DNA from: Bacillota bacterium
GTDB lineage: Bacteria > Bacillota > Clostridia > DUPQ01
Direction of reading: 5' to 3'
Assembly: GCA_022706885.1 (NCBI GenBank)
Contig: JAKJBR010000006.1
Span: 670 to 64,669 of the forward strand
DNA: 64,000 nucleotides
In this document: piece after piece, positions 39,171 to 63,732 of the stretch
Position numbering within the stretch: position 1 is the first letter of the stretch
Layout: each line of letters begins with the position of its first letter
Made by a program: the position numbers and the translations under genes
Notes under the pieces: generated by a model
Databases searched by the model: none
What the model was told of the DNA's origin: nothing
Seen by the model: the letters and a program-made list of their open reading frames with translations, nothing else

Positions 39171-40406
39171 ATGGCTTTGACTGAAAAAGAAATATCCGTT
39201 TTGCAGGAAACGGCAAAGAAATATATGGAATATGCAAATCTTCCGGTCCAAAAAGAAAAGATAGAACTTTGGAAGGCATTGAACAGAGGGAAAATGCAAC
39301 GACCCATGGTTGTAATGGACCAATTTCCCTGGAATGAGCTTAACAATGAAGGCGAACTGGATTTGTTTGTGGAGGATCCCGTTTTCCGAAGAGTAGAGCG
39401 CTATTTGAAAAGGGAAATATATAAGTATAAGCATTTTCCCGTGGATATGGTTTTAGACCCGTTTATACGGGTTCCCAAAGCCATAGACAATACCGGTTTC
39501 GGTATAAAAGTGGAAGAAGAAACGCTGTATGCATCGGGCAATGTCAGTTCCCATGTTTTTAAAAACCAACTGGAGACAAAGGAAGATGCTGAAAAGATTA
39601 AAGACATGATAATAACCCATGACGAGAAAGAGACCGAAAGAAGATTTGAAACGGCATCGGAAATATTCAAAGGAATTGCTCCGGTAATGATGGAAGGCAG
39701 AACCTGTCATCTGGGTGTATGGGATAATCTCACGCAGTTCATGGGAGTGGAGAATATATATTTCGATTTAGTAGACGAGCCGGATAAGCTTCATCTGTTT
39801 ATGGAGAGAATGACCACTTCGGTTATAAAGGGAGTTGAGCAGACAAACAGGCTTAAGATATATGATACAAACGCAAATACCTGCCATTGCTCCTATGTGT
39901 ATACGGATGAATTGCTGCCTGACAGCGGAATGGGTAAAGAAAGCATTACGCAAAACGGTTGGGCATTCGGTCTTGCGCAGCTGTTCTCTTCGGTATCACC
40001 GGCAGTGACCGAAGAGTTCGAGATTCCCTATGTAACAAGGATGGCAAAATACTTCGGTATGATATACTACGGATGCTGTGACCGATTGGATGACAGGCTG
40101 GAGATGGTACTGACAATACCCAACTTAATGAAAGTATCCTGCAGTCCCTGGTCGGACAGAGATGCATTTGCCGAAAAGATAGGCAAAAAAGTGGTAATGA
40201 GCAACAAGCCCACTCCGGCATTTGTAGCCACAACCACAATGGATGAAGAGGAGATAAGGAAAGATCTTCAGTGGACGGTAGATGCGGCAAGAAAGAACAA
40301 TGTAAATCTGGAAATGATACTGAAGGATATATCCACGGTGAAATGTCAACCGGAAAGACTGACAAGGTGGGCTGACATAGCAATGGATGTGGTAAATAAC
40401 TACTAA
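39171..40406 (+). CDS. uncharacterised enzyme, paralog B of the 29563 gene
   Basis: GGAGGG ribosome-binding site before the ATG at 39171. Shares the YYGCCD...IPNLMKVSCSPWSD...SNKPTP block with paralog A. Confidence 0.5.
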   Translation: MALTEKEISVLQETAKKYMEYANLPVQKEKIELWKALNRGKMQRPMVVMDQFPWNELNNEGELDLFVEDPVFRRVERYLKREIYKYKHFPVDMVLDPFIRVPKAIDNTGFGIKVEEETLYASGNVSSHVFKNQLETKEDAEKIKDMIITHDEKETERRFETASEIFKGIAPVMMEGRTCHLGVWDNLTQFMGVENIYFDLVDEPDKLHLFMERMTTSVIKGVEQTNRLKIYDTNANTCHCSYVYTDELLPDSGMGKESITQNGWAFGLAQLFSSVSPAVTEEFEIPYVTRMAKYFGMIYYGCCDRLDDRLEMVLTIPNLMKVSCSPWSDRDAFAEKIGKKVVMSNKPTPAFVATTTMDEEEIRKDLQWTVDAARKNNVNLEMILKDISTVKCQPERLTRWADIAMDVVNNY

Positions 40407-40411: not shown

Positions 40412-40486
40412 GTCCCGGTAGTATAATGGATAAAACGGGGGATTCCGGTTCCTCAGATGCGGGTTCGATTCCTGTTCGGGACGCCA
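40412..40486 (+). tRNA. tRNA-Arg (anticodon CCG), with encoded CCA
   Basis: Hand-folded cloverleaf. Acceptor GTCCCGG/TCGGGAC with discriminator G and CCA. T-arm GCGGG-TTCGATT-CCTGT. Anticodon arm GGGGA-TTCCGGT-TCCTC, which gives U33 and CCG at positions 34-36. D-loop AATGGATA carries the GG pair. The D-stem has only 3 of 4 pairs, so the isotype call is tentative. Confidence 0.6.
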
Positions 40487-40489
40487 TAA

Positions 40490-40531
40490 AAGAAACGTCT
40501 ATCGCCTAAAAGACGTTTCTTCTTGTGTTTT
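40490..40531 (+). terminator. intrinsic terminator after the tRNA
   Basis: AAGAAACGTCT-loop-AGACGTTTCTT perfect 11-bp stem followed by CTTGTGTTTT. Confidence 0.6.
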
Positions 40532-40595
40532 AGGCAATCATCGGACTGTTTTGGAGTGAAAAATGGTCATAAAATTTTGCAAATGTATGCTAAAT

Positions 40596-40605
40596 GCTTG
40601 CAAGC
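40596..40605. promoter_or_regulatory. perfect 10-bp palindrome GCTTGCAAGC upstream of relB (candidate autoregulatory operator)
   Basis: Lies about 50 nt upstream of the relB start, inside a promoter-like region (TTGCAA ... TACTAC). Confidence 0.35.
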
Positions 40606-40657
40606 TGCAAAAATTTGTGACATACTACAACCAGATAAACATAAGGAGGTTTTTCCA

Positions 40658-40963
40658 ATGGCAAATACAGCTACCGTATATGCAAGAATTGATCCCGAAC
40701 TCAAATCGGATGTCGATTCCATTCTTAATAAGCTTGGAGTAACTCCGTCCGCACTTATCCAAATGCTCTATAGCCAAATCAAACTGACAGAAAGCATTCC
40801 GTTTGAGATTAAAATTCCGGCTAAGATTCCGCTTTCACTCGGAAGCATGTCTGTTGAACGGTTGAACACTGAACTTCAGAAAGGAGTTGACTCGGTGAAA
40901 GCCGGTCGTGTACACTCTGCGGATGAGGTTGACGGAATACTGAATAAGGAGTTCGGTATCTGA
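40658..40963 (+). CDS. relB: RelB/DinJ-family antitoxin
   Basis: AAGGAGG ribosome-binding site. N-terminal RHH-like region (ATVYARIDPELKSDVDSILNKLGVTPSALIQML). Followed 2 nt later by a RelE/ParE toxin gene. Confidence 0.7.
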   Translation: MANTATVYARIDPELKSDVDSILNKLGVTPSALIQMLYSQIKLTESIPFEIKIPAKIPLSLGSMSVERLNTELQKGVDSVKAGRVHSADEVDGILNKEFGI

Positions 40964-40965
40964 TA

Positions 40966-41283
40966 GTGAAGTATTCTGTAAACTATTCCGATGAAGCACT
41001 GGACGATCTTCGGGATATTTATAGCTATATATCCGAATCTCTTATGGAACCGACCATTGCTGCCGGACAGGTTAACCGTATCCGTACTGAAATTAAAGCA
41101 CTTGACAGACTGCCGTTTCGTCACAGTGTTGTTGATTGGGAACCATGGCATACAATGGAAATGCGTCACTTTCCGGTAGACAACTTCGTTGTTTTTTATC
41201 TGGTGGAAGATAAAAGCGTAAATGTTGTTCGCATTTTTTACGGCAGACGGGATATTGAATCAATTATAAAGAATTCCAAATAG
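40966..41283 (+). CDS. relE: RelE/ParE-family toxin
   Basis: 105 aa, GTG start. MKYSVNYSDEALDDLRDIYSYI...FRIFYGRRD matches the ParE/RelE fold signature. Confidence 0.7.
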   Translation: MKYSVNYSDEALDDLRDIYSYISESLMEPTIAAGQVNRIRTEIKALDRLPFRHSVVDWEPWHTMEMRHFPVDNFVVFYLVEDKSVNVVRIFYGRRDIESIIKNSK

Positions 41284-41344
41284 GTTATCTGTCTTTCATA
41301 TCGCAGTGCAACTTCGTTTGATAGGAGTCACGATTACGGTTCAT

Positions 41345-41640
41345 TATCGTCCACATCAAAAAGAGATATGCAAACCTGAAGATTCACTATATTAAAAAGA
41401 CTTATATCCTATCGGTATATCGGAAATACGAACACCGCTCGGAAATGTAGTTCAAGTTTATGATGTAGAAAGAAGCATTTGCGACATCGTTCTTGATAGA
41501 GAAAAAGCCGATACACAGTTTTTGTCGGTACACTTTCCGTATATTTCAAAGGAAAAAACAAAGATTTAAGAAAACTTATAAATTACGGCAGACAATTCGG
41601 AATCGAAGAAGAGATACGGCGTTATGTGGCGTTCTTTAAA
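41345..41640 (+). pseudogene. 3'-half fragment of an abiEi-like gene, frameshifted
   Basis: About 93% nucleotide identity to 52105-52400, the 3' half of the intact gene at 51816. It has a 1-nt deletion in an A-run and lacks the 5' half. Confidence 0.55.
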
Positions 41641-41771
41641 TCCGTTCTTGCACAAGTGTAGTGCCAAGTTTTCTTAATATTAGCACAACGCAATCTTTGT
41701 AATGAAAGTTTTCACTTACGGTAAACTATCGTGTATAATTGTATCAGCAAAACAACGACGGATGTGTTGAT

Positions 41772-43436
41772 ATGAGAAAAACAAATATAGTAAAAGCCTT
41801 TATTATCATTGCTCTCGTATTACTTATTATTGTATATACTCCCGCTGTCCTCTGGTGGACAGGCAAGGTTTCTTTACCTGTCTTTTTTACATACATGCGT
41901 ACAGTTATTCATGTCGGTCTTCTCGTCGCATGGGCTATGTCGGTTTACTATCGCATTATTCATAAACAGGTTAGGAGATACCTTATTTCCATAGGCGGTC
42001 TGATGATTTTTTGGTTATTAATTAAAACACTGAAATACTATTTCGTATATGATGTAGATTCGACCCGTATGCTTTGGTATGCCTACTATATTCCGCTGCT
42101 TCTCATTCCCACTATGGGTGTTTTGGTTGCGTTGTCGCTTGGTAAGCCGGAAGATTATCGTCTTCCGAAGTGGACGAACTATTTTTTTATCTGTGCTGTG
42201 ATTTTGGTTTTATTGGTGCTCACAAACGATTTTCACAATTTGGTTTTTATTTTTCCGAAAGGAGAGACGGGGTCAGACAAAAATGCTGCATTCAACATAA
42301 TATTTTTGGTCGTTATGGCGTGGGTGAATCTTGTAGGCACAGTCGCTATTATTCTCATTATTCTCAAGTGTCGCATTCCTAAAAGTCGGGCTGTCTTATG
42401 GTTACCGTTGGTTTCACTGTCGCTCACCATCCTATACGGGATTTTATATTTGATAAAATGGGCACCTGTCAGAGTGTTTCTCAACGACCCGACAGTGACA
42501 ATATGTATGCTCTTTATTGTTGTACTGGAAAGTTGTATCAAGTCCGGCCTTATACAGGCCAATACACTTTACGGTAAGTTGTTTTATGCGTCTTCCATAG
42601 GAATGCAGATTACGGATAGTAATTTTGATGTTCTTTACACTTCGGAAAGTGCAAAGAGTTTTAACATAAAGACTCTGAAAGCTGCTGCCGAAAAACCCGT
42701 CATTCCGAGTATGAGAGAAGGGTTACGTCTTTCCGGAGCACCGATAAAGAGAGGATATGTATTCTGGCAGGAAGATGTGAGTGAACTGCTCGGCGTGTTG
42801 GAGGAGCTTGCGGGAACGGCGGAAGAGTTGGAAAGTTACGGTGAGATTATTCGGGATGAAAACCGACAAAAGGAACGACGCAAAAAATTGGAAGAACGAA
42901 AAAGACTTTTTGTGAGTATGTGTGAACAAATATCTCCACAGGTAGAGTTGCTGACAAGGTATGTGGAAGAATTGGAGGCGACAGAGAACGAAGAAACGGC
43001 CAAATTGATTTTAAGCAGGATTTCGGTAATCGGTGCATATATGAAGCGACGCAGCAACCTTATCTTTTTAGCCGAGCAACCCTGTTCCTGTGCGACAGAG
43101 GAATTGCGTCTATGCCTGAACGAGTCGATGGCAAGCCTCAGGTTTTACGGTGTGGAATGTGCCTGCTTTTTTGATGAACTGATAGATTTTGACTTAACGG
43201 TTGCAACTCTTTTCTATGACTTTTTTGAAGTTGCGGTGGAGATGGCTCTGAATAATCTTTCACAAATGGTGGCGTCTTTTAATTACAAGAACAGCAATGT
43301 CGGTTTCTCGATTATGCTCTGTACGGACAGCGACATGAGCCTTATAACAAAAAAGTTTCCGGACGCCTCCGTAGAGAAAGAGGACGGCATATGGTATTGT
43401 ATGCTGGCTGCCGGGAAAGGAGAGGCTTTCACATGA
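41772..43436 (+). CDS. polytopic membrane protein with degenerate histidine-kinase-like cytoplasmic domain (no conserved His)
   Basis: At least 8 transmembrane segments, then a coiled coil, then a C-terminal region with HisKA_3/HATPase-like spacing but no phospho-acceptor His or G-boxes. The tool's start at 41739 is a TTG inside a TGTATAAT box, so the ATG at 41772 is preferred. Confidence 0.5.
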   Translation: MRKTNIVKAFIIIALVLLIIVYTPAVLWWTGKVSLPVFFTYMRTVIHVGLLVAWAMSVYYRIIHKQVRRYLISIGGLMIFWLLIKTLKYYFVYDVDSTRMLWYAYYIPLLLIPTMGVLVALSLGKPEDYRLPKWTNYFFICAVILVLLVLTNDFHNLVFIFPKGETGSDKNAAFNIIFLVVMAWVNLVGTVAIILIILKCRIPKSRAVLWLPLVSLSLTILYGILYLIKWAPVRVFLNDPTVTICMLFIVVLESCIKSGLIQANTLYGKLFYASSIGMQITDSNFDVLYTSESAKSFNIKTLKAAAEKPVIPSMREGLRLSGAPIKRGYVFWQEDVSELLGVLEELAGTAEELESYGEIIRDENRQKERRKKLEERKRLFVSMCEQISPQVELLTRYVEELEATENEETAKLILSRISVIGAYMKRRSNLIFLAEQPCSCATEELRLCLNESMASLRFYGVECACFFDELIDFDLTVATLFYDFFEVAVEMALNNLSQMVASFNYKNSNVGFSIMLCTDSDMSLITKKFPDASVEKEDGIWYCMLAAGKGEAFT

Positions 43437-44428
43437 AGTACAATATAAAGGGTCGCTCCATCAAGGAAAGTTTTGACAATTTACCTTCAGGCGTATGCTT
43501 TGCCGACAGCAAAGGTATGATTGTATTGTGTAACAGACAAATGCACAGATTATGTTGCATATTGCTCGGAACAGGTTTGCAACACATTTTTGAGCTCAGA
43601 GAGGCATTACAAACACCTACGGATACCGTTACACATGTTGAGGGAACAAATGATACTTTTCGTTTCCCCGACGGTCGGATATGGGAGTTTAGGGAAAGTA
43701 CGGTTACCGTTGTCGGCGGCAAAACATATACGCAGATACAGGCACTTTCTTTGACCGAACTGTATGCCAAAAAAACAGAGCTGGAGCAAAAAAATCGCGA
43801 ATTGGAAGAAGTGAATAAGCGGGCAAGGAAGCTTTATGCGGAGTTGGACAATACCGTTAGAGAGGAAGAAGCTTTTGCAATCAAAATGCGTATTCATAGC
43901 GATATAGGTTTACGGTTGCTTGCCACACATAAGGTGCTCCGTGAAGGCGGACTTACCGAACTTAAGGAAGCCGGGAAAATATGGAGAAGCACCCTTAATG
44001 TTTTCGGTATAGCCGATGCGGTGGCAAGTGATTATACAAATATAGAGAAAAAAACCTCAAGCAGGTCGGAGGAAATGCTCCATAACCTTATTAATTCCGC
44101 CGCAGGGATAGGCTTAAAAATCATTCTTGACGGTAATTTACCTGAGGACCGGGAACAAAGTTACCTTATTACTACCGCTATGAGGGAATGTGCCACCAAT
44201 ACGGTACGTCATGCCGGCGGTAATGAAATGAAAGTAAGGATATTTGAAGTAAAAAGCACACTTGTTGTATGGATTGAAAATAACGGAAAGCCGCCCGAGA
44301 GGAAAGTTGTAGAGGGCGGAGGTTTGTCCGATTTAAGAAAGCGTATAGAAAAGGCGGGCGGTACTATGAGAATAAAGAGCAGTCCTACATACAGATTGAC
44401 AGTGATTTTGCCCGGAAAGGAGAAATAA
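43433..44428 (+). CDS. cytoplasmic sensor histidine kinase (HisKA_3 / NarL-partner type)
   Basis: H-box MRIHSDIGLRL, N-box ECATNTVRHAGGNEM, and G-boxes ENNGKP...EGGGLSDLRKRIEKAGG. GGAGAGG ribosome-binding site. The start overlaps the upstream stop. Confidence 0.75.
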   Translation: MKYNIKGRSIKESFDNLPSGVCFADSKGMIVLCNRQMHRLCCILLGTGLQHIFELREALQTPTDTVTHVEGTNDTFRFPDGRIWEFRESTVTVVGGKTYTQIQALSLTELYAKKTELEQKNRELEEVNKRARKLYAELDNTVREEEAFAIKMRIHSDIGLRLLATHKVLREGGLTELKEAGKIWRSTLNVFGIADAVASDYTNIEKKTSSRSEEMLHNLINSAAGIGLKIILDGNLPEDREQSYLITTAMRECATNTVRHAGGNEMKVRIFEVKSTLVVWIENNGKPPERKVVEGGGLSDLRKRIEKAGGTMRIKSSPTYRLTVILPGKEK

Positions 44429-44431
44429 TCC

Positions 44432-45055
44432 ATGGTTAATGTACTTATTGTGGAAGATAAAATAATGCCTCGCGATTGCATGGAAGGCTATATCAAAAGC
44501 AGTGACCGCTATAGTCTTGTAGCCTCTATAACCAATGCGGGAATGGCGGAAATGACATGCATGTGTTATCCTGTCGACCTTATACTTATGGATGTTTGTA
44601 CCGAGAACAACGAAAGCGGCATTAAGGCCTGTTCCGTTATAAAGCGATACTTTCCCGATATTAAAGTTATTATAGTGACTTCCATGGCCGATTCAAGCTT
44701 TATAACCAAAGCAAGGGAAGCAAATGCGGACAGTTTTTGGTATAAGGAAGTAAGTGAAAATGAATTATTGGATATTATGGATCGTACAATGAGCGGCGAA
44801 TCGGTATGGCCGGATAAAGTACCCGAAGTACAGATCGGCAAAGCAAGCTCCTGCGAGTTTACTCAACGAGAGATGGAGGTACTTCGACTGATTGTAAGAG
44901 GTCTGACCGATGCCGCTATTGCGGAGGAGTTGTATATAAGTATAACCACAGTACGTACACATATAAGGGAGTTGCTCAAAAAATCAGGCTATAGCAACCG
45001 TGTAAGGCTTGCCTGTGATGTGATAAACAAAGATTTGATTGTCGAAGGATTTTAG
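44432..45055 (+). CDS. LuxR/NarL-family response regulator (REC + HTH)
   Basis: Receiver domain with the acceptor Asp in DLILMDV. C-terminal LuxR HTH (REMEVLRLIVRGLTDAAIAEELYISITTVRTHIRELLKKSG). Confidence 0.8.
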   Translation: MVNVLIVEDKIMPRDCMEGYIKSSDRYSLVASITNAGMAEMTCMCYPVDLILMDVCTENNESGIKACSVIKRYFPDIKVIIVTSMADSSFITKAREANADSFWYKEVSENELLDIMDRTMSGESVWPDKVPEVQIGKASSCEFTQREMEVLRLIVRGLTDAAIAEELYISITTVRTHIRELLKKSGYSNRVRLACDVINKDLIVEGF

Positions 45056-45214
45056 AAAATATATTATATCTATTCCGCACCGTTTTTCCGTACTACGGCT
45101 TCTTTTGTTGCAAAAATCATCATTTATGACGATATGTTTTTTATGCCCTTTTCCCTATAATTTAAAGTGACAAGGTGCTGTATATCACCTACTTAAGAAA
45201 AGGAAGGTGGCAGG

Positions 45215-45601
45215 GTGCGTCAAATTATTTTGAGCATGAAAGACTATATCTTTGCAGATGCTGTCGCACAGGCATTGCTGAATGAAAAGGGCAGTGATTT
45301 TGCCGTGCAAAAAACAAAAAGTCCGGAAGAAATACAAAAGTATTGCAAGATTACTTCTCCATATGCTCTGCTCATGGAAGTGACGGGATATCCGCCTTTT
45401 GCACTGTCGGAAAGGCTTGCTTTACGGGAGCAAGTAAAGAAACAAAATCCGAACTGCAAGATTGTTATTCTTGTGGACGAGAACTCGGAGAAAGAGATTG
45501 CAGCGCAGGTAAGACAGGCAAAAAAGGACGGTCTTATAGACCAGTTTATCTACGGTTCCACAAGTGCAAGCTACCTTGTGGCGATGATGGACACCTTGTA
45601 G
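45215..45601 (+). CDS. stand-alone receiver-like domain protein with Glu at the phospho-acceptor position (pseudo-receiver)
   Basis: CheY-like alternation of beta-strands and helices, but beta3 reads ALLMEVTG (E instead of D), the DD pair is KD, and the conserved Lys is not evident. Confidence 0.4.
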   Translation: MRQIILSMKDYIFADAVAQALLNEKGSDFAVQKTKSPEEIQKYCKITSPYALLMEVTGYPPFALSERLALREQVKKQNPNCKIVILVDENSEKEIAAQVRQAKKDGLIDQFIYGSTSASYLVAMMDTL

Positions 45602-45641
45602 ACAACAAAAAGGAAAATACATATATGAAGGAGAAAGCGAA

Positions 45642-48600
45642 ATGAAAGTAAAAAGGAAATTATTATCTGTTTTTTTGGTAATATCCATGTTGGCAGGGAT
45701 TCTGCCCTTAACCGCTCTGCCGGTATATGCGGCCAATCCGCCGGCGACAGATGTATCAGTATATACTACGGAAGGTAATCAAACTCTCGACTCCATGTAT
45801 CCGTACCTGGTTAACGGGAAGAAGGCAAAAACGGGTACTTTGGGAAGTGGCGGATGTACCGCCTATTTTGACCATACTACCGGTATCTTGACACTGCAGA
45901 ATCATAGCGGAGGTAATATAGTGAAAGGTTCTTTAGGGGGTAAAAAGGATTTGACCGTTAAGTTGGTCGGTACTAATGCTCTTACATCCGCTTTGCAAAA
46001 CATATCGGGCGGGGACCTCATAATCACGGCAGAGGATACCGCCACTCTTTCGATTACTAACAACACAGACACTAACGGTGTTATAACAGGCATAAGTACC
46101 GATATTACGGGAGTTAACGCCGGACCCGGAAGTATAACAATTAGAGGAAAAGCAAATATATCCATATACGTAGAAAACATAAGTACAGGTGTAGAATCCG
46201 GGGTCCGAGGTATCTTTGCTAAACAGGATATATCTATCCTTGATAATGCATCGGTGAATATTGAATGTATAGGCAAAGGGACGGGTTCCTACCCGGTATC
46301 AGGAATTCAAAGTACAAATAAAAGTGTAACATTCAACACAACGGGAAAAGTAAATATCGACTGTTCGGATGCACAGAACAAAAATCCATATGCTATTAAC
46401 AATATGCTAGCAAATATTTTAACCTCTGTCGATGAACTTACTCTAAAATGGACGAACGGAGGTCGTGGATATAGTTTAGTTGATGGTGGTATGTCATATG
46501 ATGTCACATCTTTTACCCGCAACATCAAAGAAGCTACACCAACCCAGCCCGGAATAGAGGTCTTCAAGAAAGGAACACCTCTTACTTTAACGATAGAAAA
46601 CGGCAAAAACAATTTCGGCAAAAAGGAAGGGCAATTTACCCACGGAGAAACAGTAAATGTTACGGCCAATTCCATTACCGGTCTGACATTTAAAAAGTGG
46701 GTAGCCACAGCCGGTATAATCGGATGTGCCACAGATTCTTCCACCACTTTAACCATGCCCGATGAGAATGTAACGCTTACGGCAATATATGATGTTTTTG
46801 CCGTACAACCTAAATCCGCCTATGTAAGCGCTACATCGAGAAAAGTCACTTTTTCTTTAAAGGCAACTCCTACTACTTATGCTCCCCGTTTAGTTACCGA
46901 ATCCGGAGATTATAACGACATAGTCGGGGAGACAACTTTCGGTCATGATGGCGCATTAAACTATTCAGAAGTTATTCGTTGTATTGGAATATTCGATGTT
47001 CCGAACGGCAATTACCGTATTGCCGCCAAATTTGACGATGTATGGTATTATAGCGATGTTTTCACGGTAGATTATAGTACCCATAGCATAACCGTTGACG
47101 GAGATGCGGTTGAGACTACCGACTACACAATAACGGGTGTAAGTGACTTCAGTTCTATACCGGACGGTACAAACCTGACAATCAATGCAGTTAATGATAT
47201 TAATGTTGACGGAGAGAATGTAGTCGCCGGCAGCTCAAAGACTATAGTTATCAATTCGTCCTATACCATAACCATTAATAAAAAGGTGAGCAATAGTGCA
47301 CCTACGGTAGTTGTAGGAAAGGAAACGCAAACCGGAAATGCAACTCCGAAGGCAAGTAGCGGTATTCCTGCAGCGATTGCGTATGAGGCGGATATGTCGG
47401 GATGGTTTAATGATGCTGACGGTGACGCTTTGACTTACTCGGTAGTATCGGCAAGGGAAGGCACAAATGATGTTTCCGCTCATGTGAGTGTTGCGGGAAA
47501 GCACATCACCTATACACCTGCTGCCGCACAAGCGGGTAAAAATGTAATTATAAAGATAAAAGCAAATGACGGACTTGCAGACAGTACGGATAATGTAACA
47601 ATAACCGTAACTGTAGAGGAAGTGCCTGCAGATGCGAAGATATATAAGGTAACTGTTGCCGGAGATGCTGCCGAGACTACCGACTACACAATATCGGGAG
47701 CAACCGACTTGAATGCGGTGCCGGACGGAACGAATCTGACAATCTATGCGGTTAATAACATTACCGTTAACGGTGAAATTGTGACTTGCGGAAACTCCAA
47801 AAATATAACTATCAATTCAGCTCAAACAATAACCATTAACAAAAAGGTGGGCAATAGTGCACCTACGGTAGTTGCAGGAAAGGAAGCACAAACCGGAAAT
47901 GCAACACCTGAGGCTAACTGCGGTCATCCTGAAGCAGTAATGTATGAGGCGGATATGTCGGGATGGTTTAATGATGTTGACGGTGATGTATTGACTTACT
48001 CGGTAGTATCTGCAACGGAAGGCACAAATGATGTTTCCGCTCATGTGAGTGTTGCAGGAAAGCACATCACCTATATACCTGCTGCCGCACAAGCGGGTAA
48101 AAATGTAATTATAAAGATAAAAGCAAATGACGGACTTGCAGACAGTACAGGTGATGTAACAATTACAGTGAGTGTAGCGGCGGTTCCGGCGGATACAACC
48201 TACAAAGTAACCATATACGGAAATGCCGTTATAACAACCGACTATACGGTATCGGTAGCCGACTTGAATGCGGTACCGCACGGAACTGATTTAATAATCT
48301 ATGCGGTTAATGATATTACCGTTAGTGGCGAGGATGTGGCGGCAGGCGGCTCTAAGACTATAGCATCAATCGTTTCACCCTGTGGCATTGAAGTTAAAAA
48401 GAAAAATAACGCACCTACGGTAGTTGCAGGAAAGGAAACGCAAACCGGAAATGCAACACCTGAGGCTAACTGCGGTCATCCTGAAGCAGTAAGGTATGAG
48501 GCGGATATGTCGGGATGGTTTAATGATGTTGACGGTGACACTTTGACTTACTCGGTAGTATCTGCAACGGAAGGCACAAATGATGTTTCCGCTCATGTGA

Positions 48601-51434
48601 GTGTTGCGGGAAAGCACATCACCTATACACCTGCTGCCGCACAAGCGGGTAAAAATGTAATTATAAAGATAAAAGCAAATGACGGACTTGCAGACAGTAC
48701 AGGTAATGTAACAATTACAGTGAGTGTAGCGGCAGTACCGGCGGATACAACTTATGTGGTAACCGTTAACGGAGATGCAGTTATAACAACCGACTATACG
48801 GTATCGATAGCCGACTTGAATGCGGTACCGCACGGAACTGATTTGATAATCTATGCGGTTAATGATATTACCGTTGACGGTGCGGTTGTGGTTGCAGGTG
48901 GCTCTAAGACAATAGCATCAATCATTTCACCCTACAATATAACCGTTAACAAAAAGACCGGTAATAACGCACCCACGGTAGTTGTCGGAAAGGAAACGCA
49001 AACCGGAAATGCAACACCTAAGGCTAACTGCGGTCATCCTGAAGCAGTAAGGTATGAGGCGGATATGTCGGGATGGTTTAATGATGTTGACGGTGATGTA
49101 TTGACTTACTCGTTAGTATCTGCAACGGAAGGTACAAATGATGTTTCCGGTGATGTATATATTTTAGGAGCAGATATCCGCTATACTCCTGCTGCGACAC
49201 AGGCCGGCAAGGATGTGATTATCGTAGTTAAAGCAAATGACGGATCTGCAGACAGTACAGGTAATGTAACAATTACAGTGAGTGTAGCGGCGGTTCCTGC
49301 GGATACAACCTATAAAGTAACCATGTACGGAGATGCCGTTATAACAACCGACTATACGGTATCGGTAGCCGACTTGAATGCGGTACCGCACGGAACTAAT
49401 CTGACAATCAATGCAGTTAACAATATTATCGTTGACGGCGAGAGTGTAGCGGCAGGCGGCTCAAAAGTTATTACAATCAATTCATCTCAAACAATAACGG
49501 TTAACAAGGTAGCTATACCCAAACACACGGTAACCTATGATGTAGACGGCGGCAGTTTAGCAGCGCCTACTCAGGACGATGTGGCGGAAGGTGCTACTTT
49601 TGCAGTTGCTTCATATGCAGGTACAAAAGCCGGATTTACATTCGGAGGCTGGAACGACGGTAGCAGTGATTATGTGGCCGGTGCCGTTTACACAATGGGA
49701 ACGCTAAACGTAACCTTGACGGCGGTATGGAATGTAGCGTCGATAGCCGTAACCGGAGTAAAATTGGATTCTTCAACATTAACTTTAACGGCAGGCGGTT
49801 CAGCCGGAACATTAACTGCAACGGTATTACCTATGGATGCCGCAAACAAGAACATAACATGGGCATCAAGTGATACTTCGACAGCAACCGTATCAAACGG
49901 TGTAGTAACTCCTGTAGCAGCGGGAACGGCGACTATTACCGTTACAACGGAAGACGGCGGTAAAACAGCTACTTGTACGGTAAAAGTAGTTCCTGCAAAA
50001 CCTACGGGACTTGTTGCAATAAAACCTACTACGGCAGGCGGTACCGACGGTATGATTACCGGCACAAGTGCAATTATGGAATATGCAAACAATGTTTCCT
50101 TTACAGGTGCCGTTAATTGTATCGGTACAAAGATTACGAACCTTTCGGCAGGAACATATTATGTAAGAGTAAAGGCAACCGTAGCACACGATGCCGGAGA
50201 GGCGACCACGGTTGTAGTTCCCGCATTTGTTGCTATTGAGGAAGAGGACGAGGACATTTATATTCCCGTTACCGCTTCCACTATTCCGGCAAATAACGGT
50301 GCGGTCAACATAGGATATATTGAATCCGAAGGTGTGGTATCATTGGATTTAACCGACGATAAGATAGAGGAGATTATTAAGAAGAGCAGTAAAGGGAATG
50401 TGGACTTTAATGTTTCCGGAATTGAAAATGCTACATCGGTTGAAATACCCAAAGAGGCATTTGCAGCATTCGGTAAAGCGGATATGTCTGTAACTGTAAA
50501 ACTGCCCGACGGAAGCATTACTCTTGATAAAGAAGCCGTTGATTCGGTTTCCGAACAGGCTGAAGGAGATTCGGTAAATATTGAACTATCAGTAATTGAA
50601 GCTAAAGAGTTGAACCATCTTCAGGAGCAATCGGTAAAAGCGGACGATATAGTTGTTGATATCAACATTAGCGACGGAAAAGGCAATTTGATTAAGACCT
50701 TTGACGGAGAACTGACAATACAGATTCCTTACAAGGGAACTTTACCGGTAACGGTCTGGTACTTAAATAATGCCGGTCAGTTGGAGAAAATAGAAGCAAC
50801 TTACAAAGAAGGAATCGTTACGTTCAAACTCAATCACCTTTCAGTATATGTACTGGGACAAGATAAAGACAGAACAAAAGATTGGGATAATCCTTTTACC
50901 GATGTAAATGAAAAGGATTGGTACTATGATTCAGTGAAGTTCGCACATATGAACAAACTGATGTACGGTGTTGGCTACAAGCAGTTTGACCCCCACGGTT
51001 CTATACCTCGCGGACTGTTGCTTACCGTACTGCATCGTTTGGAGAAAACGCCCGAACCGAAAGGATATGGCGCATTCAAAGATGTAGCGGCAAACAAATA
51101 TTACAGTAAAGCTGTCAACTGGGCTGCCGAGAATAATATTGTAACCGGTTACGGAGACGGAAACTTTGGCCCCAATGACCTTATTACAAGAGAACATTTG
51201 GCATTAATCCTTATGAACTATGCCAAGTACAAAGGTTTTGACACATCAAAAAAGGCGGATTTAGAAATATTTGCCGACTCAAAGAGTATTTCCATTTGGG
51301 CAAAAGAGGCTATGGCATGGGTTGTTGCCGAAGATATCTATGTAGGTGACCAAGCCAATCTGAATCCTGCCGGTAACGCCACACGTTGCCAAGTAGCGGC
51401 AATATTCAAGCGTTTCATTGAAAACGTAGAGTAA
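45642..51434 (+). CDS. giant SLH-anchored surface adhesin (cadherin-like repeats, Listeria-Bacteroides repeat, Big_2, FN3-like, 3 x SLH)
   Basis: Signal peptide MKVKRKLLSVFLVISMLAGILPLTALPVYA, followed by beta-rich domains. Four ~187-aa repeats carry DxDGD(A/V)LTYS cadherin-like motifs. A Listeria-Bacteroides (flg_new) repeat GGWNDGSSDYVAGAVY is present. A Big_2 domain reads VTGVKLDSSTLTL...ATITVTTEDGGKTATCTVKV. The C-terminus has three S-layer-homology domains (FTDVNEKDWYYDSV..., FKDVAANKYYSKAV..., ...). Confidence 0.85.
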   Translation: MKVKRKLLSVFLVISMLAGILPLTALPVYAANPPATDVSVYTTEGNQTLDSMYPYLVNGKKAKTGTLGSGGCTAYFDHTTGILTLQNHSGGNIVKGSLGGKKDLTVKLVGTNALTSALQNISGGDLIITAEDTATLSITNNTDTNGVITGISTDITGVNAGPGSITIRGKANISIYVENISTGVESGVRGIFAKQDISILDNASVNIECIGKGTGSYPVSGIQSTNKSVTFNTTGKVNIDCSDAQNKNPYAINNMLANILTSVDELTLKWTNGGRGYSLVDGGMSYDVTSFTRNIKEATPTQPGIEVFKKGTPLTLTIENGKNNFGKKEGQFTHGETVNVTANSITGLTFKKWVATAGIIGCATDSSTTLTMPDENVTLTAIYDVFAVQPKSAYVSATSRKVTFSLKATPTTYAPRLVTESGDYNDIVGETTFGHDGALNYSEVIRCIGIFDVPNGNYRIAAKFDDVWYYSDVFTVDYSTHSITVDGDAVETTDYTITGVSDFSSIPDGTNLTINAVNDINVDGENVVAGSSKTIVINSSYTITINKKVSNSAPTVVVGKETQTGNATPKASSGIPAAIAYEADMSGWFNDADGDALTYSVVSAREGTNDVSAHVSVAGKHITYTPAAAQAGKNVIIKIKANDGLADSTDNVTITVTVEEVPADAKIYKVTVAGDAAETTDYTISGATDLNAVPDGTNLTIYAVNNITVNGEIVTCGNSKNITINSAQTITINKKVGNSAPTVVAGKEAQTGNATPEANCGHPEAVMYEADMSGWFNDVDGDVLTYSVVSATEGTNDVSAHVSVAGKHITYIPAAAQAGKNVIIKIKANDGLADSTGDVTITVSVAAVPADTTYKVTIYGNAVITTDYTVSVADLNAVPHGTDLIIYAVNDITVSGEDVAAGGSKTIASIVSPCGIEVKKKNNAPTVVAGKETQTGNATPEANCGHPEAVRYEADMSGWFNDVDGDTLTYSVVSATEGTNDVSAHVSVAGKHITYTPAAAQAGKNVIIKIKANDGLADSTGNVTITVSVAAVPADTTYVVTVNGDAVITTDYTVSIADLNAVPHGTDLIIYAVNDITVDGAVVVAGGSKTIASIISPYNITVNKKTGNNAPTVVVGKETQTGNATPKANCGHPEAVRYEADMSGWFNDVDGDVLTYSLVSATEGTNDVSGDVYILGADIRYTPAATQAGKDVIIVVKANDGSADSTGNVTITVSVAAVPADTTYKVTMYGDAVITTDYTVSVADLNAVPHGTNLTINAVNNIIVDGESVAAGGSKVITINSSQTITVNKVAIPKHTVTYDVDGGSLAAPTQDDVAEGATFAVASYAGTKAGFTFGGWNDGSSDYVAGAVYTMGTLNVTLTAVWNVASIAVTGVKLDSSTLTLTAGGSAGTLTATVLPMDAANKNITWASSDTSTATVSNGVVTPVAAGTATITVTTEDGGKTATCTVKVVPAKPTGLVAIKPTTAGGTDGMITGTSAIMEYANNVSFTGAVNCIGTKITNLSAGTYYVRVKATVAHDAGEATTVVVPAFVAIEEEDEDIYIPVTASTIPANNGAVNIGYIESEGVVSLDLTDDKIEEIIKKSSKGNVDFNVSGIENATSVEIPKEAFAAFGKADMSVTVKLPDGSITLDKEAVDSVSEQAEGDSVNIELSVIEAKELNHLQEQSVKADDIVVDINISDGKGNLIKTFDGELTIQIPYKGTLPVTVWYLNNAGQLEKIEATYKEGIVTFKLNHLSVYVLGQDKDRTKDWDNPFTDVNEKDWYYDSVKFAHMNKLMYGVGYKQFDPHGSIPRGLLLTVLHRLEKTPEPKGYGAFKDVAANKYYSKAVNWAAENNIVTGYGDGNFGPNDLITREHLALILMNYAKYKGFDTSKKADLEIFADSKSISIWAKEAMAWVVAEDIYVGDQANLNPAGNATRCQVAAIFKRFIENVE
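47283..49506 (+). repeat. in-frame tandem repeat, 4 x 561 bp (about 187 aa per unit), high nucleotide identity
   Basis: Units start near 47283, 47844, 48400 and 48951. Long stretches are identical between units, for example GGATATGTCGGGATGGTTTAATGATGTTGACGGTGA. Confidence 0.85.
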
Positions 51435-51483
51435 AGAGGCAGTATGCAGTTATGCATTAATACAATTCAATAGTTTAACAATC

Positions 51484-51521
51484 GGTACCATGCTTTCCTT
51501 GAAGGTATGGTACCTTTTATT
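51484..51521 (+). terminator. intrinsic terminator after the adhesin gene
   Basis: GGTACCAT ... ATGGTACC 8-bp stem followed by TTTTATT. Confidence 0.5.
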
Positions 51522-51618
51522 GTGTACCTGGCATGGCACAGTTCTAACGGGTGAAAGTCCCTTTACAGGTATCTATCGCCAAGTGTAGTGAACCACAAGC
51601 TGGAAGAAGTAATGCCGG

Positions 51619-51718
51619 GGTGAAAGCCGGTCGTGTACACTCTGCGGATGAGGTTGACGGAATACTGAATAAGGAGTTCGGTATCTGATGGAGAAGTATT
51701 CTGTAAACTACTCCGATG
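51619..51718 (+). pseudogene. 100-bp remnant of the relB 3' end plus relE 5' end
   Basis: About 95% identical to 40894-40993. It encodes only an 18-aa RelE stub (MEKYSVNYSDV...). Confidence 0.5.
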
Positions 51719-51815
51719 TAATAAACTCTACTTATTATTTCTAAGCAATTCGACATTTAGCACTTTACAGATTCGCTTTAATTATGCATAATCTAAAGCG
51801 AAAGTGTAGGAAGAT

Positions 51816-52406
51816 ATGATAGCGTTAAAAGAGTACTTTAAAGAAAATCCTGTCATTACGAATAGGGATGCCGATAATATCGGGATAGGAAGACATGTTC
51901 TATCCGATTTGGCAAGTCAAGGAAAAATTGAAAGAATAAGACCGGGAGTATATCAAAAATCCGGTGAGATTTTAGATGATTTTGTTCTGATATCGTCCAA
52001 TAGAGATAGAGTTGTTTTTTCACACCAATCAGCCCTATATTTACATGATTTATCTGATCGTGTTCCGAACATCTTTAATATATCCGTACCTCAAGGATAC
52101 AATGCAAGCCACATCAAAAAGGGATATGCAAACCTGAAGATTCACTATATTAAAAAAGACTTATATCCTATCGGTATATCTGAAATACGAACACCGCTCG
52201 GAAATGTAGTTCAAGTTTATGATGTAGAAAGAAGCATTTGCGACATCATAGTTGATAGGGAAAAAATCGATGCGCAGATTTTTGTCGGTGCACTTTCCTC
52301 ATATTTCAAAGGAAAAAACAAGGATTTAAGAAAACTTATAAAATACGGCAGACAATTCGGGATCGAAGAAGAGATACGGCGTTATGTGGCGTTCTTTCGT
52401 GATTAA
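51816..52406 (+). CDS. AbiEi-like (type IV toxin-antitoxin / abortive-infection antitoxin) wHTH protein
   Basis: 196 aa. N-terminal wHTH-like region (ITNRDADNIGIGRHVLSDLASQGKIERIRPGVYQ) and the family-typical C-terminal extension. No AbiEii nucleotidyltransferase gene is adjacent. Confidence 0.55.
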   Translation: MIALKEYFKENPVITNRDADNIGIGRHVLSDLASQGKIERIRPGVYQKSGEILDDFVLISSNRDRVVFSHQSALYLHDLSDRVPNIFNISVPQGYNASHIKKGYANLKIHYIKKDLYPIGISEIRTPLGNVVQVYDVERSICDIIVDREKIDAQIFVGALSSYFKGKNKDLRKLIKYGRQFGIEEEIRRYVAFFRD

Positions 52407-52669
52407 CATAGAGAGTATAAAAGGGAAAATAAGAAACTTATATTATAAGAACGGCTACACACAGAGAAAGTTTGAATAAACAAAAAGAGATTGAAAAAAT
52501 ATTACGGGATATAGAAAACGATGACGTTTTGTCTTATAAGATAACGAAATCCGCCTTGCTTAAGCGTTGTGTCAATTATCTTGATATTAACGTAACGTAA
52601 TCGATTGTTTTAATTGCATATTAAGACAACTTTATATGTGTTATAATTATCCTATCGTCAGGAGGGAAA

Positions 52670-52900
52670 ATGATTAAGCAGATAGAATCAAAGGAACTGG
52701 AGTTTGCTATATTTTGCATAGAAAACACAGCTGTGCATCTTGGCATTAAAGGGAGTGTTCTGTACAAGAAGCTTACCGAGGAAAGCGACATTCTTTATGA
52801 TTACATAATACCGCTGTATGATGCTCTTCATACTCAGAGTAAAGAATATATCGTGGATGATATCTTGAGGGTTATGGAGAAGAGAGGTATTGCGGCATGA
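52670..52900 (+). CDS. DUF3791-like small protein
   Basis: 76 aa, helical. Overlaps the downstream gene by 4 nt. Confidence 0.5.
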   Translation: MIKQIESKELEFAIFCIENTAVHLGIKGSVLYKKLTEESDILYDYIIPLYDALHTQSKEYIVDDILRVMEKRGIAA

Positions 52901-53367
52901 AACTATATCACGCTTCAAATGTAGAGGTTTCAAAACCTGACTTGGTTCATTCCAGAAAGAACCTTGACTTCGGTGTCGGTTTCTATACTACACCGATTTA
53001 TGAACAAGCTCTAAGTTGGGCAAACAGGTTTCGAAAGACTGAAGGTTATGCAGTTATTTCAGAGTATGTCTTTGACAAAACAGCTTATCAAACTTTAAGT
53101 ATACTTAAATTTGACGCCTATTCGGAAGATTGGCTGAATTTTATAATAAGCTGTCGTACAGGAAAAGACAACACAACTTATGATATCGTAATTGGCGGAA
53201 TAGCAAATGATAAGGTTTTTAACACAATTGAGCTTTATCTTGACAATCTGATTGATAGAAAAGAAGCAATTAAGCGACTTAAGTACGAAAGGCCTAATTC
53301 CCAATATTGTTTCAGGACGGAAAAAGCACTTGCTTATTTAAGTTTTGAAAGGAGCAACTGTTTATGA
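52897..53367 (+). CDS. DUF3990-like protein (GFY motif)
   Basis: 156 aa. MKLYHAS...DFGVGFYTTP matches the recalled conserved GFY signature of DUF3990. Confidence 0.5.
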   Translation: MKLYHASNVEVSKPDLVHSRKNLDFGVGFYTTPIYEQALSWANRFRKTEGYAVISEYVFDKTAYQTLSILKFDAYSEDWLNFIISCRTGKDNTTYDIVIGGIANDKVFNTIELYLDNLIDRKEAIKRLKYERPNSQYCFRTEKALAYLSFERSNCL

Positions 53368-53597
53368 AGGCTCACCCTATTTTGCTACAAAAGAAATATG
53401 CAAGGATTGTGGAACAGTTTGCAAAAAAACAGGGTATAGAAATTAGCACTGCTCTTGATTTTTTCTACGGTTCCATGGTGTATGTTTTGATGAGCGAAGG
53501 AATATCGGATTTTCACTGCATGTCGGATACATATATAGTTGATGAACTTATTATTGAGTATTCAAAAGCTTTGAAAAAGAATCAATTAGATAAGTGA
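53364..53597 (+). CDS. DUF3791-like small protein (second copy)
   Basis: 77 aa, paralogous in pattern to the 52670 gene. Overlaps the upstream gene by 4 nt. Confidence 0.5.
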   Translation: MKAHPILLQKKYARIVEQFAKKQGIEISTALDFFYGSMVYVLMSEGISDFHCMSDTYIVDELIIEYSKALKKNQLDK

Positions 53598-54791
53598 TAC
53601 GGGAATTTTCCAAATTTTCTCTTTAACAGGACTTAATGTATTTGTATGACATATCACTCCGTAATAGGGGATACGAAAATCTTCTTGAGCTAAAACGGAG
53701 AAATTCTTTTCTGCATGAGAGGGATTATCGCTTAATTTAATTTCAAACGGATACAGTTTTCCTCCCATTTCAATGAGTAAATCTATTTCTCTTTGGTTAC
53801 TGTCGCGGTAATAATACATTTGCGGGCTTATGCCGTTATGTCGATAAGACTTGTATATTTCCGAAACTATCCAACTTTCAAAAAGATTTCCTTTTAGCGG
53901 ATTCATATCAAAAGCCTCGACTGTCCTGATAGAACACAGGTAAGCAGCCAGTCCGACATCACAGAAATGAATTTTGGGCCGTTTAATGATTCTCTTTCCC
54001 AAATTTCGGCTATATGCAGGCAGCTCGATTACCAGACCGCTTGTTAAGAGAACATCCAGCCACCTTCTCACCGTACTGCTGTCAACACCTAAATCTTTTC
54101 CGATACTTGCCAAGTTTAATTCCTGTGCGGTACATATTGCAAGCAACGTCATAAAATGCAGGAACTGACCGGTATCCAAAACATTGGTAATTTCTCTCAC
54201 GTCACGTGCGATATAACTGTCAATGTATGACTGATAGTAACCTGCAACATCAATATTCTTTTGGAAAAGAACTCTTGGCATGGAACCTTGTATAATAGTT
54301 TTTGCAACAGAAAAAGACAAGATATCTTCCCGCATCATGTCGGACAAATCACGGGGAAAAGGATTATGCTCCTGCTCTTTGTATTCTTTTACGGAAAATC
54401 CGTCTAATTGCAAAATTCTGACTCTTCCCGCCAACGACTCCTGCACCCCGCGCATCAGAGGATAAACTTGCGAGCCGGTAAGCCAAAAGAGATTGTTCTC
54501 ATTACGGGCATCTATAATCATTTTTATATACGGAAAAAGTTCGGGAGCATATTGAATCTCATCAATCAGAAGAGGAGTTTTAAAGCGTTCGAAAAACAAT
54601 TCGGGATTGAATCGTGCCAGGTTTCTCAAAGCTGGATCATCAAGACTTACATATGTCCTTTCGTCTTCTTTCAAATGCAGCAAAAGCGTGCTTTTACCTA
54701 CTTGTCTTGGCCCCGTAAGCAAAAGTGCAGGATAATATTGTGTTTGCTGTTTAAAATACTCTTCAATTTGACGTCTGCGATAAGTAATCAT
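53586..54791 (-). CDS. AAA+ ATPase (AAA_14 + DUF4143 / COG1373 family)
   Basis: Walker A LLTGPRQVGKST and Walker B LLIDEIQY. C-terminal DUF4143-like region. The preferred start is the ATG at 54791 after GAGAGG; the tool's longer ORF runs into an upstream hydrophobic low-complexity stretch. Confidence 0.7.
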   Translation of the reverse strand: MITYRRRQIEEYFKQQTQYYPALLLTGPRQVGKSTLLLHLKEDERTYVSLDDPALRNLARFNPELFFERFKTPLLIDEIQYAPELFPYIKMIIDARNENNLFWLTGSQVYPLMRGVQESLAGRVRILQLDGFSVKEYKEQEHNPFPRDLSDMMREDILSFSVAKTIIQGSMPRVLFQKNIDVAGYYQSYIDSYIARDVREITNVLDTGQFLHFMTLLAICTAQELNLASIGKDLGVDSSTVRRWLDVLLTSGLVIELPAYSRNLGKRIIKRPKIHFCDVGLAAYLCSIRTVEAFDMNPLKGNLFESWIVSEIYKSYRHNGISPQMYYYRDSNQREIDLLIEMGGKLYPFEIKLSDNPSHAEKNFSVLAQEDFRIPYYGVICHTNTLSPVKEKIWKIPVSLI

Positions 54792-54978
54792 TTTGATATA
54801 CCTCTCTATAATTAAGATTATTATACTAAACATATTCATGAAAATCAAGGATTCAATCCCTGAAAAACGGGGATGCAATCCTTGAAAAGCATAAATTCCT
54901 GTTAAAGACAGGAACTTTATCCAAACATAAGTGAGGTATTTTTTGCGTAAATTTGTGCGGCAAATTGCTAAAACCCTC

Positions 54979-55660
<682 letters not shown>

Positions 55661-55695
55661 AAGTAGCGGAAATAAATCAGGAGGAGAAAAAAACT

Positions 55696-57036: not shown

Positions 57037-57089
57037 GTGTAAATTACGGCTGCCCTCAAAAAAGGGGGCAGCCTGCTTAAAAGGAGGAC

Positions 57090-61225: not shown

Positions 61226-61238
61226 AGGAGACTTTGGT

Positions 61239-62159: not shown

Positions 62160-62599
62160 GGGATAATATGAAAATAGACAGCATTGTAAACGGAATAGTT
62201 TTAGACCACATAGCAGCGGGCAACAGTTTGAGGATATATAAGTTTCTGAATTTAGACGACCTGGAATGCTCCGTTGCGGTTATACGAAACTGCAGAAGCA
62301 AAAAGTACGGCAAAAAGGATGTTATCAAGATAGACTCCATTATCGACATGAATCTGGATGTCTTAGGATATATAGATCCCAATATTACCGTCAACATAAT
62401 AAGGGACGGGAAAATTGCAGAGAAGAAACATCTGGAACTTCCTGAAAGACTGGTCAATGTTATCAAGTGCCATAATCCTAGATGTATTACCTCAATAGAG
62501 CAGGAAGTAGACCATATTTTTAAACTTACCGACAGAGAGAACATAATATACAGATGTGCATATTGTGAAACCAAGTCGGATAAGGAAGAGATTTGGTAA
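62156..62599 (+). CDS. pyrI: aspartate carbamoyltransferase regulatory subunit
   Basis: C-terminal zinc domain CxxC...CxxC (CHNPRC...CAYCE). Overlaps the pyrB stop. Confidence 0.8.
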
Positions 62600-62611
62600 C
62601 TGTAGCAGTAA

Positions 62612-63712: not shown

Positions 63713-63732
63713 GTTAAATGGAGGTGACAAGA

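Follow-up and report, generated by a model that had tools for sequence, protein, structure and literature searches.

The interval between tRNA-Arg and pyrR

The stretch of DNA considered here (the window) comprises 64,000 nucleotides of a Clostridia genome (GCA_022706885.1, contig JAKJBR010000006.1, positions 670 to 64,669 of the forward strand), and its most variable part lies between a tRNA-Arg(CCG) gene and pyrR. This interval carries a RelB/ParE toxin-antitoxin (TA) pair, two copies of abiEi of which one is decayed, a signalling module followed by the gene of a giant surface protein, and the two candidate defence systems PDC-M13 and PDC-S01 (Table 1). In a preliminary description it was taken for an accessory island flanked by a tRNA gene and devoid of an integrase. 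The gene content listed there is correct (Pfam, PADLOC), uncharacterised candidates for defence are indeed present (PDC-M13, PDC-S01 and an orphan AbiEi), and the segment is accessory: sister genomes run LemA-DUF2207-FucI-411aa-tRNA-Arg and then reach the region upstream of pyrR within 283 nt (L062 and L064; L-numbers are labels of related contigs compared with the window). How the segment came to lie there is read differently here. The interval from the tRNA-Arg terminator to the pyrR promoter is probably a chromosomal plasticity zone and not an integrated element, one whose genes came, were reshuffled and were lost again through processes without site specificity, in a species of digester Clostridia that recombines heavily.

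Measured against the empty-site alleles, the variable DNA extends from ~40557 to 54833. The limits first given (40412-55000) enclose accessory DNA, but are too wide at both ends and overlook an internal division: the extra DNA consists of two blocks, A and B, placed around a 106-nt relB/parE remnant that is common to every allele. The window itself is 99.99% identical to MWEB01000007.1 of GCA_002070835.1 (Firmicutes bacterium ADurb.Bin099), a metagenome-assembled genome (MAG) from an anaerobic digester.

The two blocks also differ in composition. The G+C content (GC) of the whole segment is 0.411, equal to that of the left flank, and it deviates only at 51.4-55.0 kb, where it falls to 0.36-0.38. 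There GC at third codon positions (GC3) is 0.30-0.37, compared with 0.43 +/- 0.04 in the flanks (~1.5-3 standard deviations). The signalling and surface-protein genes lie within the flank range for both GC3 and synonymous-codon-usage distance. A skew of the 40.5-55 kb region against its flanks, proposed earlier as a check, is thus found for the AT-rich 51.4-55.0 kb, whereas block A is host-like.

The RelB and ParE genes, an antitoxin gene and a toxin gene, lie next to each other with 2 nt between them, as in type II systems, and by their sequences are likely an ordinary type II TA pair.

Table 1. Features of the tRNA-Arg-pyrR interval, in window coordinates
Feature	Position	Strand	Basis or remark
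tRNA-Arg(CCG)	40412-40486	+	ARAGORN, Rfam
tRNA terminator hairpin and T-rich tail	40492-40526	+	stem 40492-40500/40511-40519
Post-terminator sequence P	40527-40565	+	ends in AATG, the left junction of block A; common to empty alleles (blastn)
Block A, ~11.05 kb	~40557-51633	+	present in lineage 1; empty alleles have a 33-nt linker in its place
relB antitoxin, 101 aa	40658-40963	+	Pfam RelB 3.6e-11
R1 copy A (relB 3' end and parE 5' end)	40894-40995	+	repeat search, alignment
parE/relE-superfamily toxin, 105 aa, GTG start	40966-41283	+	Pfam ParE_toxin 2.5e-10
R2 copy A (decayed abiEi 3' fragment)	41351-41637	+	frame-breaking indels, without open reading frame
HisKA_7TM sensor-like membrane protein, first cassette gene	41772-43436	+	Pfam
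Putative PAS-like/GHKL ATPase cytoplasmic kinase, 331 aa	43433-44428	+	start overlaps preceding gene
REC-LuxR/GerE response regulator	44432-45055	+	Pfam; NCBIfam NarL-type regulators
Small 121/128-aa protein	45215-45601	+	without Pfam or NCBIfam family match
1930-aa secreted surface protein (signal peptide, Flg_new, Big_2, SLH)	45642-51434	+	Pfam
Surface-protein internal repeats, five x ~558 nt (~186 aa), tandem	47074-49507	+	repeat search
Strong intrinsic terminator of the surface-protein gene	51484-51514	+	
Possible group II intron stump	51522-51566 (possibly to 51612)	+	anchored alignment, suggestive only
R1 copy B (relB 3' remnant and 28-nt parE stub)	51619-51720	+	repeat search, alignment
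106-nt relB/parE remnant between the blocks	51634-51739		in all empty-site alleles too
Block B, 3.09 kb, AT-rich	51740-54833		deleted with scars in empty alleles
Intact abiEi, 196 aa	51816-52406	+	contains R2 copy B (52109-52397); PADLOC AbiEi 3.7e-62, full length
PDC-M13A (DUF3791)	52670-52900	+	Pfam 2.1e-19; PADLOC 1.6e-32
PDC-M13B (DUF3990)	52897-53367	+	PADLOC 1.1e-66
PDC-M13C (second DUF3791)	53364-53597	+	PADLOC 7.8e-35
PDC-S01, AAA_14-DUF4143 ATPase	53586-54791	-	PADLOC 4.3e-98; Pfam AAA_14 1.2e-27, DUF4143 2.1e-43
Conserved intergenic region upstream of pyrR	54834-55066		
pyrR	start 55067 or 55124		then uracil permease, pyr operon

Alleles of the interval in sister strains

Near-empty versions of the interval were found in contigs L062 and L064, which are collinear with window positions 31060/34279-40556, tRNA included, then carry a 33-nt linker, the relB/parE remnant and a short scar, and continue as window positions 54834-64000. 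Their flanks are 97.5-98.6% identical to the window (sister strains overall, ~95-98%), and the two contigs, from independent sequencing runs, are identical over a 408-nt junction stretch. A 440-kb contig (L060) has the same near-empty arrangement with a group II intron inserted. All three are contiguous across both flanks and were found via a sister-lineage PyrR cluster. Contigs from three other datasets (L032, L042, L043) read intron, 40528-40556, remnant 51634-51739, 53547-53586 and then 54834 onward, and a metagenome scan with a 29-mer of the repeat R1 returned two contigs only, both of this scarred type and cut inside the intron. None of the left-flank proteins is identical in the divergent lineages.

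The scar at 53547-53586 consists of the 3' 40 nt of PDC-M13C. In the window the 9-mer CTTATTATT occurs at 51731 and again at 53547, and in the empty alleles it occurs once. Because the second copy lies within the coding sequence of PDC-M13C and the tail of that gene is retained, the sequences show that block B was lost from the empty alleles by deletion: one deletion lay between the two CTTATTATT copies and left the PDC-M13C tail behind.

The zone has also received other cargo. In L026, L028 and L029, contigs with the PyrR of the window or one almost identical to it, window positions 54898-54969, between the DUF4143 gene and pyrR, are replaced by a 9.7-kb gene (L026 126-9846) encoding a 3122-aa surface protein with SLH, Flg_new and LRR_5 domains, and no flanking repeats were found around this gene in the L026 lineage. 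Two alternative giant surface proteins are therefore encoded in this zone, each at its own point and in different strains. The divergence between the window and the empty alleles is itself mosaic in the flanks, lying between 0 and 11.6% per 500-nt segment and shifting abruptly, which implies that alleles are freely exchanged by homologous recombination within the species complex.

The intron of the sister strains (Rfam) has an open reading frame (ORF) for a reverse transcriptase/maturase, reads 5'-GUAUG...AU-3' and was located at L004 10661-10785, L032 51-1900 and L060 ~7620-9468. Comparison of intron-less (L062) with intron-bearing alleles places the insertion site at ...TTCTCGT|ATTTTAGG..., and in L004 and L060 the intron stands exactly at the site of the tRNA-Arg terminator that is equivalent to 40526|40527 of the window. 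Here the window has an unoccupied homing site and no intron copy. Intron ends that are 100% identical follow other terminators (those of a tRNA-Ser gene, a GH4 gene and an FtsW gene, and one unidentified terminator). Since the same intron is found after several different terminators, it is multi-copy and terminator-seeking. In its position it thereby resembles the terminator-targeting (class C-like) group II introns, in that an intron with a reverse transcriptase/maturase ORF lies directly after rho-independent terminators at several sites; the window differs in having only the empty homing site and possibly a 45-nt stump.

This possible stump follows the surface-protein terminator, where the window reads GTGTACCTGGCATGG...GGGTGAAAGTCCC. 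The segment can be aligned, without a shift of register, to the 45 nt at the 5' end of the intron (GTGTA...GGTGAAAGTCC, with GGTGAAAGTCC at offset 28 in both, in the register of the L032 intron), with a score reached by 2 of 1000 shuffles, and Rfam detected no intron remnant at 51522-51612 (E <= 1). The alignment is suggestive only of a putative stump, at 51522-51566, of a related terminator-seeking group II intron.

This repeated intron probably causes assembly breaks and chimeras. Contigs L058, L061 and L063 (upstream of the intron) and L059 (1-9400) join the intron and pyrR to GH4, tRNA-Ser/RelB-YafQ, FtsW and EF-G genes. These upstream joins probably arose in assembly, as chimeras or through concatenation across the intron copies, though some may be real rearrangements between such copies; the upstream parts of the four contigs were disregarded in the allele comparison.

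Origin of the interval and its split repeat

Beyond block A, near 51.6 kb, the C-terminus of RelB appears a second time in translation. Two segments, R1 and R2, are each present twice, with the copies ~10.73-10.76 kb apart. R1 (97% identity) covers the 3' end of relB and the first 28 nt of parE, while R2 (~94% identity) covers the 3' half of abiEi, with frame-breaking indels in copy A. The interval between R1 and R2 differs: in copy A it holds the rest of parE, whereas in copy B it holds the promoter and 5' half of abiEi. Copy A is an intact relB-parE with an abiEi fragment, copy B a relB/parE fragment with an intact abiEi, and together they form a 0.75-kb split direct repeat that brackets the signalling and surface-protein genes. 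The tetranucleotide AATG stands at both ends of block A (...GAAAAATG|GTCAT... and ...GAAGTAATG|CCGG...), and the empty alleles have it once (...AAAAATG|CCG...).

How did two complementary halves of the same module come to bracket the cassette? The best inference from the sequences is that two differently decayed relB-parE-abiEi alleles were joined. An ancestral tRNA-P-relB-parE-abiEi locus would have decayed differently in two lineages. One lineage would have kept relB-parE, lost the 5' half of abiEi and carried the cassette downstream; the other would have lost most of relB-parE and kept abiEi together with the defence genes. One illegitimate crossover at the 4-nt AATG would then have joined the first allele (block A) head to tail before the second. 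Such a joining would explain why the repeats have their order and orientation, why the two copies decayed in complementary ways and why they diverge by 3-6% (similar to the divergence between lineages), and it would account for the P|CCG junction of the empty alleles without any coincidence. A second copy of P in front of R1 copy B, which would have given the AATG junction a homologous-loss origin, was looked for and rejected, as no similarity above shuffles was seen.

Several observations weigh against this account and against the plasticity zone in general. The window gene order is present in every contig that holds the exact AbiEi, ParE, DUF3990 or DUF4143 protein (dozens of assemblies, several digester metagenomes), the sole difference seen among these being one fewer surface-protein repeat. 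Among the compared contigs there was neither a recipient-type allele, with block B and without block A, nor a donor-type allele. Past this tRNA, a related species (L005, 82% identity) has genes unrelated to those of the window. Several intron-containing contigs have unrelated 5' flanks and are maybe chimeric, and the functions given to the cassette, PDC-M13 and PDC-S01 are all inferred, the latter two being candidates. Finally, the block A event may have run in the other direction: in mechanical terms, the AATG junction would result just as well if an ancestor resembling the window had lost block A. It is conceivable, if unlikely, that the window-type arrangement, split repeat included, is ancestral to the whole species complex and that reduction alone produced the emptier alleles: block A would have gone in one deletion at AATG and block B in others, with nothing gained in the window lineage. 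Block B is demonstrably deleted in the empty alleles, AATG flanks block A, block A is compositionally native and a deletional bias is general in bacteria. However, the right end of such a deletion would have to match the older junction ...AATG|CCGG... exactly, and no coincidence is needed if the empty alleles never had block A. Moreover, R1 copies A and B are 97% identical, more than the 91.5-92.9% that they share with the remnant of the empty alleles, and an earlier duplicative event would still be required for the repeat. Direct repeats in the same order and orientation around a cargo would also suit an entry of block A as circular DNA, either an excised segment or a plasmid of a relative, by a Campbell-type single crossover in a homologous relB-parE-abiEi module. 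The module would thereby have been doubled, one copy to each side, with complementary deletions later trimming the copies. The species recombines heavily, the abiEi family is found on plasmids and the cassette occupies a different locus in another species, all in keeping with such an entry, which would make TA and Abi genes a portable homology for cargo capture. It is nevertheless quite improbable: one crossover in R1 or R2 would have given an arrangement other than the one seen and two extra deletions are needed, the cassette was not found on a circle or a plasmid, and none of ~45 contigs is a recombinant that has lost the cargo by recombination between the repeats.

The reading closest to the preliminary description, a classical tRNA-targeted integrative island, inserted at tRNA-Arg in the distant past and by now stripped of both its integrase and the tRNA-derived repeat at its far end, appears very improbable. 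The segment does lie directly beside a tRNA gene, it is polymorphic for presence and absence among strains, its TA and defence cargo is typical of islands and block B is AT-rich. The tRNA, the single one in the window (ARAGORN), passes covariance-model scoring (Rfam RF00005, 49.6 bits against a gathering threshold of 29), and it is kept in filled alleles, in empty alleles and in the related species. Yet the polymorphism begins 70 nt past the tRNA, downstream of its terminator, and the break is not inside the tRNA 3' end. As already noted in the preliminary description, no repeat of the tRNA 3' end is present: a 25-mer and a 17-mer, with <=3 mismatches allowed, match only the tRNA itself across the window, 54.8-55.0 kb included. 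The reported lack of an integrase likewise holds, since no recombinase or recombinase remnant was found with Pfam, NCBIfam and PADLOC, either among the main ORFs of the 40.5-55 kb region, where intergenic gaps are <=455 nt and accounted for, or among the left-side neighbour genes scanned (~25.8-40.4 kb). The region is split by the 106-nt remnant that the empty alleles share, and 11 of its 14 kb have host-like GC and codon usage. Nor do the empty alleles offer a clean empty site. They share the 70 nt past the tRNA and, because they hold fragments of relB/parE and of PDC-M13C, they are deletion products with scars of island genes and not virgin attachment (att) sites. The whole region has no near match to known plasmids or phages; the only plasmid matches are distant ones, of abiEi (70%) to an Anaerococcus plasmid and of 54 nt of the DUF4143 ATPase gene to a Treponema plasmid. 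The locus thus resembles tRNA-associated integrative islands (e.g., P4-like integrase islands) in its place beside a tRNA gene, its accessory cargo and its absence from related strains, but differs from them in lacking an integrase and att repeat, in a boundary past the terminator, in a mostly native composition and in its scarred empty alleles. The classic island signature claimed earlier gives way to two separate indels past the terminator, and in place of the unusual mobilisation route suggested with it, common recombination, both illegitimate and homologous, is the better explanation in a species that recombines so much. Parts of the region may go back to one old and decayed insertion, though nothing requires this, and the link with the tRNA is probably incidental, the boundary being placed after the tRNA terminator. 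Accessory genes beside a tRNA are customarily taken for a mobile island, and the present case shows why this may mislead.

As a plasticity zone, the interval is comparable to integrase-less islets and genomic plasticity regions, with which it shares strain-wise presence and absence between conserved flanks, the lack of a recombinase, a cargo of defence, TA and surface-protein genes, alternative cargos and mosaic flanks. It differs from these in beginning at a tRNA terminator, in its split TA/Abi repeat and in the use of the same spot by an intron in sister strains. It is an ordinary kind of locus with an unusually legible history, which does not overturn current understanding and provides, for anaerobic-digester Clostridia, a well-resolved case of one hotspot at which giant S-layer-anchored surface proteins and small defence modules are replaced from strain to strain.

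Predicted functions of the cargo and neighbouring features

The signalling genes and the surface-protein gene form a five-gene cassette. The putative kinase has weak, sub-threshold Pfam matches to PAS and HATPase_c and an NCBIfam match to the UhpB C-terminus (1.4e-8); 381 homologues were detected, named mostly from MAGs of Oscillospiraceae and Ruminococcaceae, and some of them carry PF02518. The regulator combines a receiver domain (Response_reg, 4.6e-15) with a DNA-binding output domain (GerE, 3.9e-14; Pfam). In another species (L068) the cassette is conserved as a unit at an unrelated locus, where the seven-transmembrane (7TM) protein is 59%, the kinase 67% and the small protein 82% identical to those of the window, the LuxR regulator is present and the SLH surface protein is 51% identical in the SLH anchor only. 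The small protein (L068 11523-11888) is hence the most conserved member of the cassette, at 82% against 59-67% for sensor and kinase. Because it recurs whole at this unrelated locus, the cassette, as far as sequence comparison can tell, acts as one functional unit, in which the regulatory genes are conserved and the exposed protein changes rapidly. Judging by the conserved linkage, the 7TM sensor, the kinase, the LuxR regulator and the small protein together probably regulate the SLH-anchored surface protein encoded downstream of them. A variant of this surface protein with 1744 aa (L017 14678-19912) is exactly one repeat shorter than the 1930-aa protein.

Two further observations concern this cassette. 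By eye, the small protein looks like a receiver domain that lacks the customary acceptor aspartate. In L068 an inserted HicB/HicA TA pair (10620-11241) separates the regulator gene from that of the small protein, so that a TA module is again seen with the cassette.

In block B, likely a small defence islet, the full-length AbiEi belongs to a widespread family of ~195 aa and is in this respect like the AbiE (AbiEi/AbiEii) type IV TA system. Homologues of AbiEi normally have an overlapping abiEii. In the window, by contrast, no ORF for abiEii (a DUF1814 nucleotidyltransferase) follows either abiEi copy, one of which is only a 3' fragment, and the intact abiEi is followed by 263 nt and then by the first DUF3791 gene. 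R2 stops 9 nt short of the abiEi end, at the point where abiEii would start. Next to the closest AbiEi homologue, abiEii is split in one context and a stub in another. The AbiEi of the window is likely an orphan regulator left after loss of the AbiEii toxin.

PDC-M13 and PDC-S01 are among 145 guilt-by-embedding candidates that were explicitly presented as untested (Payne et al., 10.1101/2024.01.29.577857), and both are abundant in rumen MAGs (PMC13356809). In the window all their components match the PADLOC hidden Markov models strongly and in the expected order, with no structural difference from the described candidates, and as candidates only they are treated here. PDC-M13 consists of three co-oriented, overlapping genes that match the M13A, M13B and M13C models (PADLOC). 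The DUF3990 family is placed in the Pfam ADP-ribosyltransferase (ART) clan (PMC7955679). An AlphaFold2 model of the DUF3990 protein built with 31 homologues (pLDDT 92.5, pTM 0.85) has an ART fold, closest to RES toxins and then to the catalytic domains of PARP and diphtheria toxin, and Foldseek concurs (probability 0.99 to 9r35_A). Sequence identity to RES structures is 6-11%, and Pfam gives DUF3990 only and not RES, the family with an Arg-Glu-Ser motif. The fold thus links DUF3990 with the RES toxins of the type II TA systems Xre-RES, ParST and MbcTA, from which the module differs in this low identity and in having two DUF3791 partners that flank the DUF3990 gene, instead of one Xre antitoxin. 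Relatives of DUF3990 are also present on 46 IMG/VR viral contigs (L074-L119). At least one adjacent DUF3791-like gene accompanies them on 32 of the 46, with the full DUF3791-DUF3990-DUF3791 triad on seven and one DUF3791-like partner on 25. The candidate defence module is therefore also carried by phages or prophages. PDC-M13 is probably a TA-like abortive-infection module, in which, going by the model, DUF3990 would be an NAD+-using ART-fold toxin checked by one or both DUF3791 proteins.

The PADLOC alignment of PDC-S01 begins at residue 66 of a 469-aa ORF, the true start of which is likely M69. DUF4143 has been listed among the PD-(D/E)XK nuclease families (PMC3424549), and PDC-S01 is likely an ATPase with a predicted nuclease domain. 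PDC-M13, PDC-S01 and the cassette of 7TM protein, kinase, LuxR regulator and small protein, which travels with variable SLH surface proteins, are testable candidates. A bolder and rather doubtful possibility is a recombinase-free form of gene capture, in which diverse TA/Abi modules would serve as the portable homology or junctions that stitch 10-kb cassettes into hotspots beside terminators, alongside PDC-M13 as a three-component, RES-like, NAD+-targeting defence with two DUF3791 proteins flanking and controlling an ART-fold toxin.

Some features outside the variable DNA deserve mention. The pyrR leader has a sub-threshold Rfam match to a PyrR binding site at the expected position (55014-55107, 30.3 bits against a gathering threshold of 54). 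Upstream of the tRNA, two overlapping adjacent genes on the minus strand, opposite to their neighbours (30822-32411 and 32408-34015; 529 and 535 aa), have no Pfam or NCBIfam match, and divergence from the sister strains climbs to 4-7.6% across this pair. Two genes of similar size (29554-30819, 421 aa, and 39171-40406, 411 aa) give as their sole family signal a faint match to URO-D. An extra, clearly similar copy of the 411-aa gene lies directly after the tRNA in L005 (3999-5234). In L071 the signalling module is preceded by ~410-aa genes. These were considered as homologues of the 411-aa gene, a relation that would have pointed to an ancestral position of the module, and proved unrelated (E 0.14-0.5). 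Lastly, the compositionally most deviant gene of the window is an ORF at 914-1630, with a GC of 0.27, a GC3 of 0.235 and a weak DUF3887 match.

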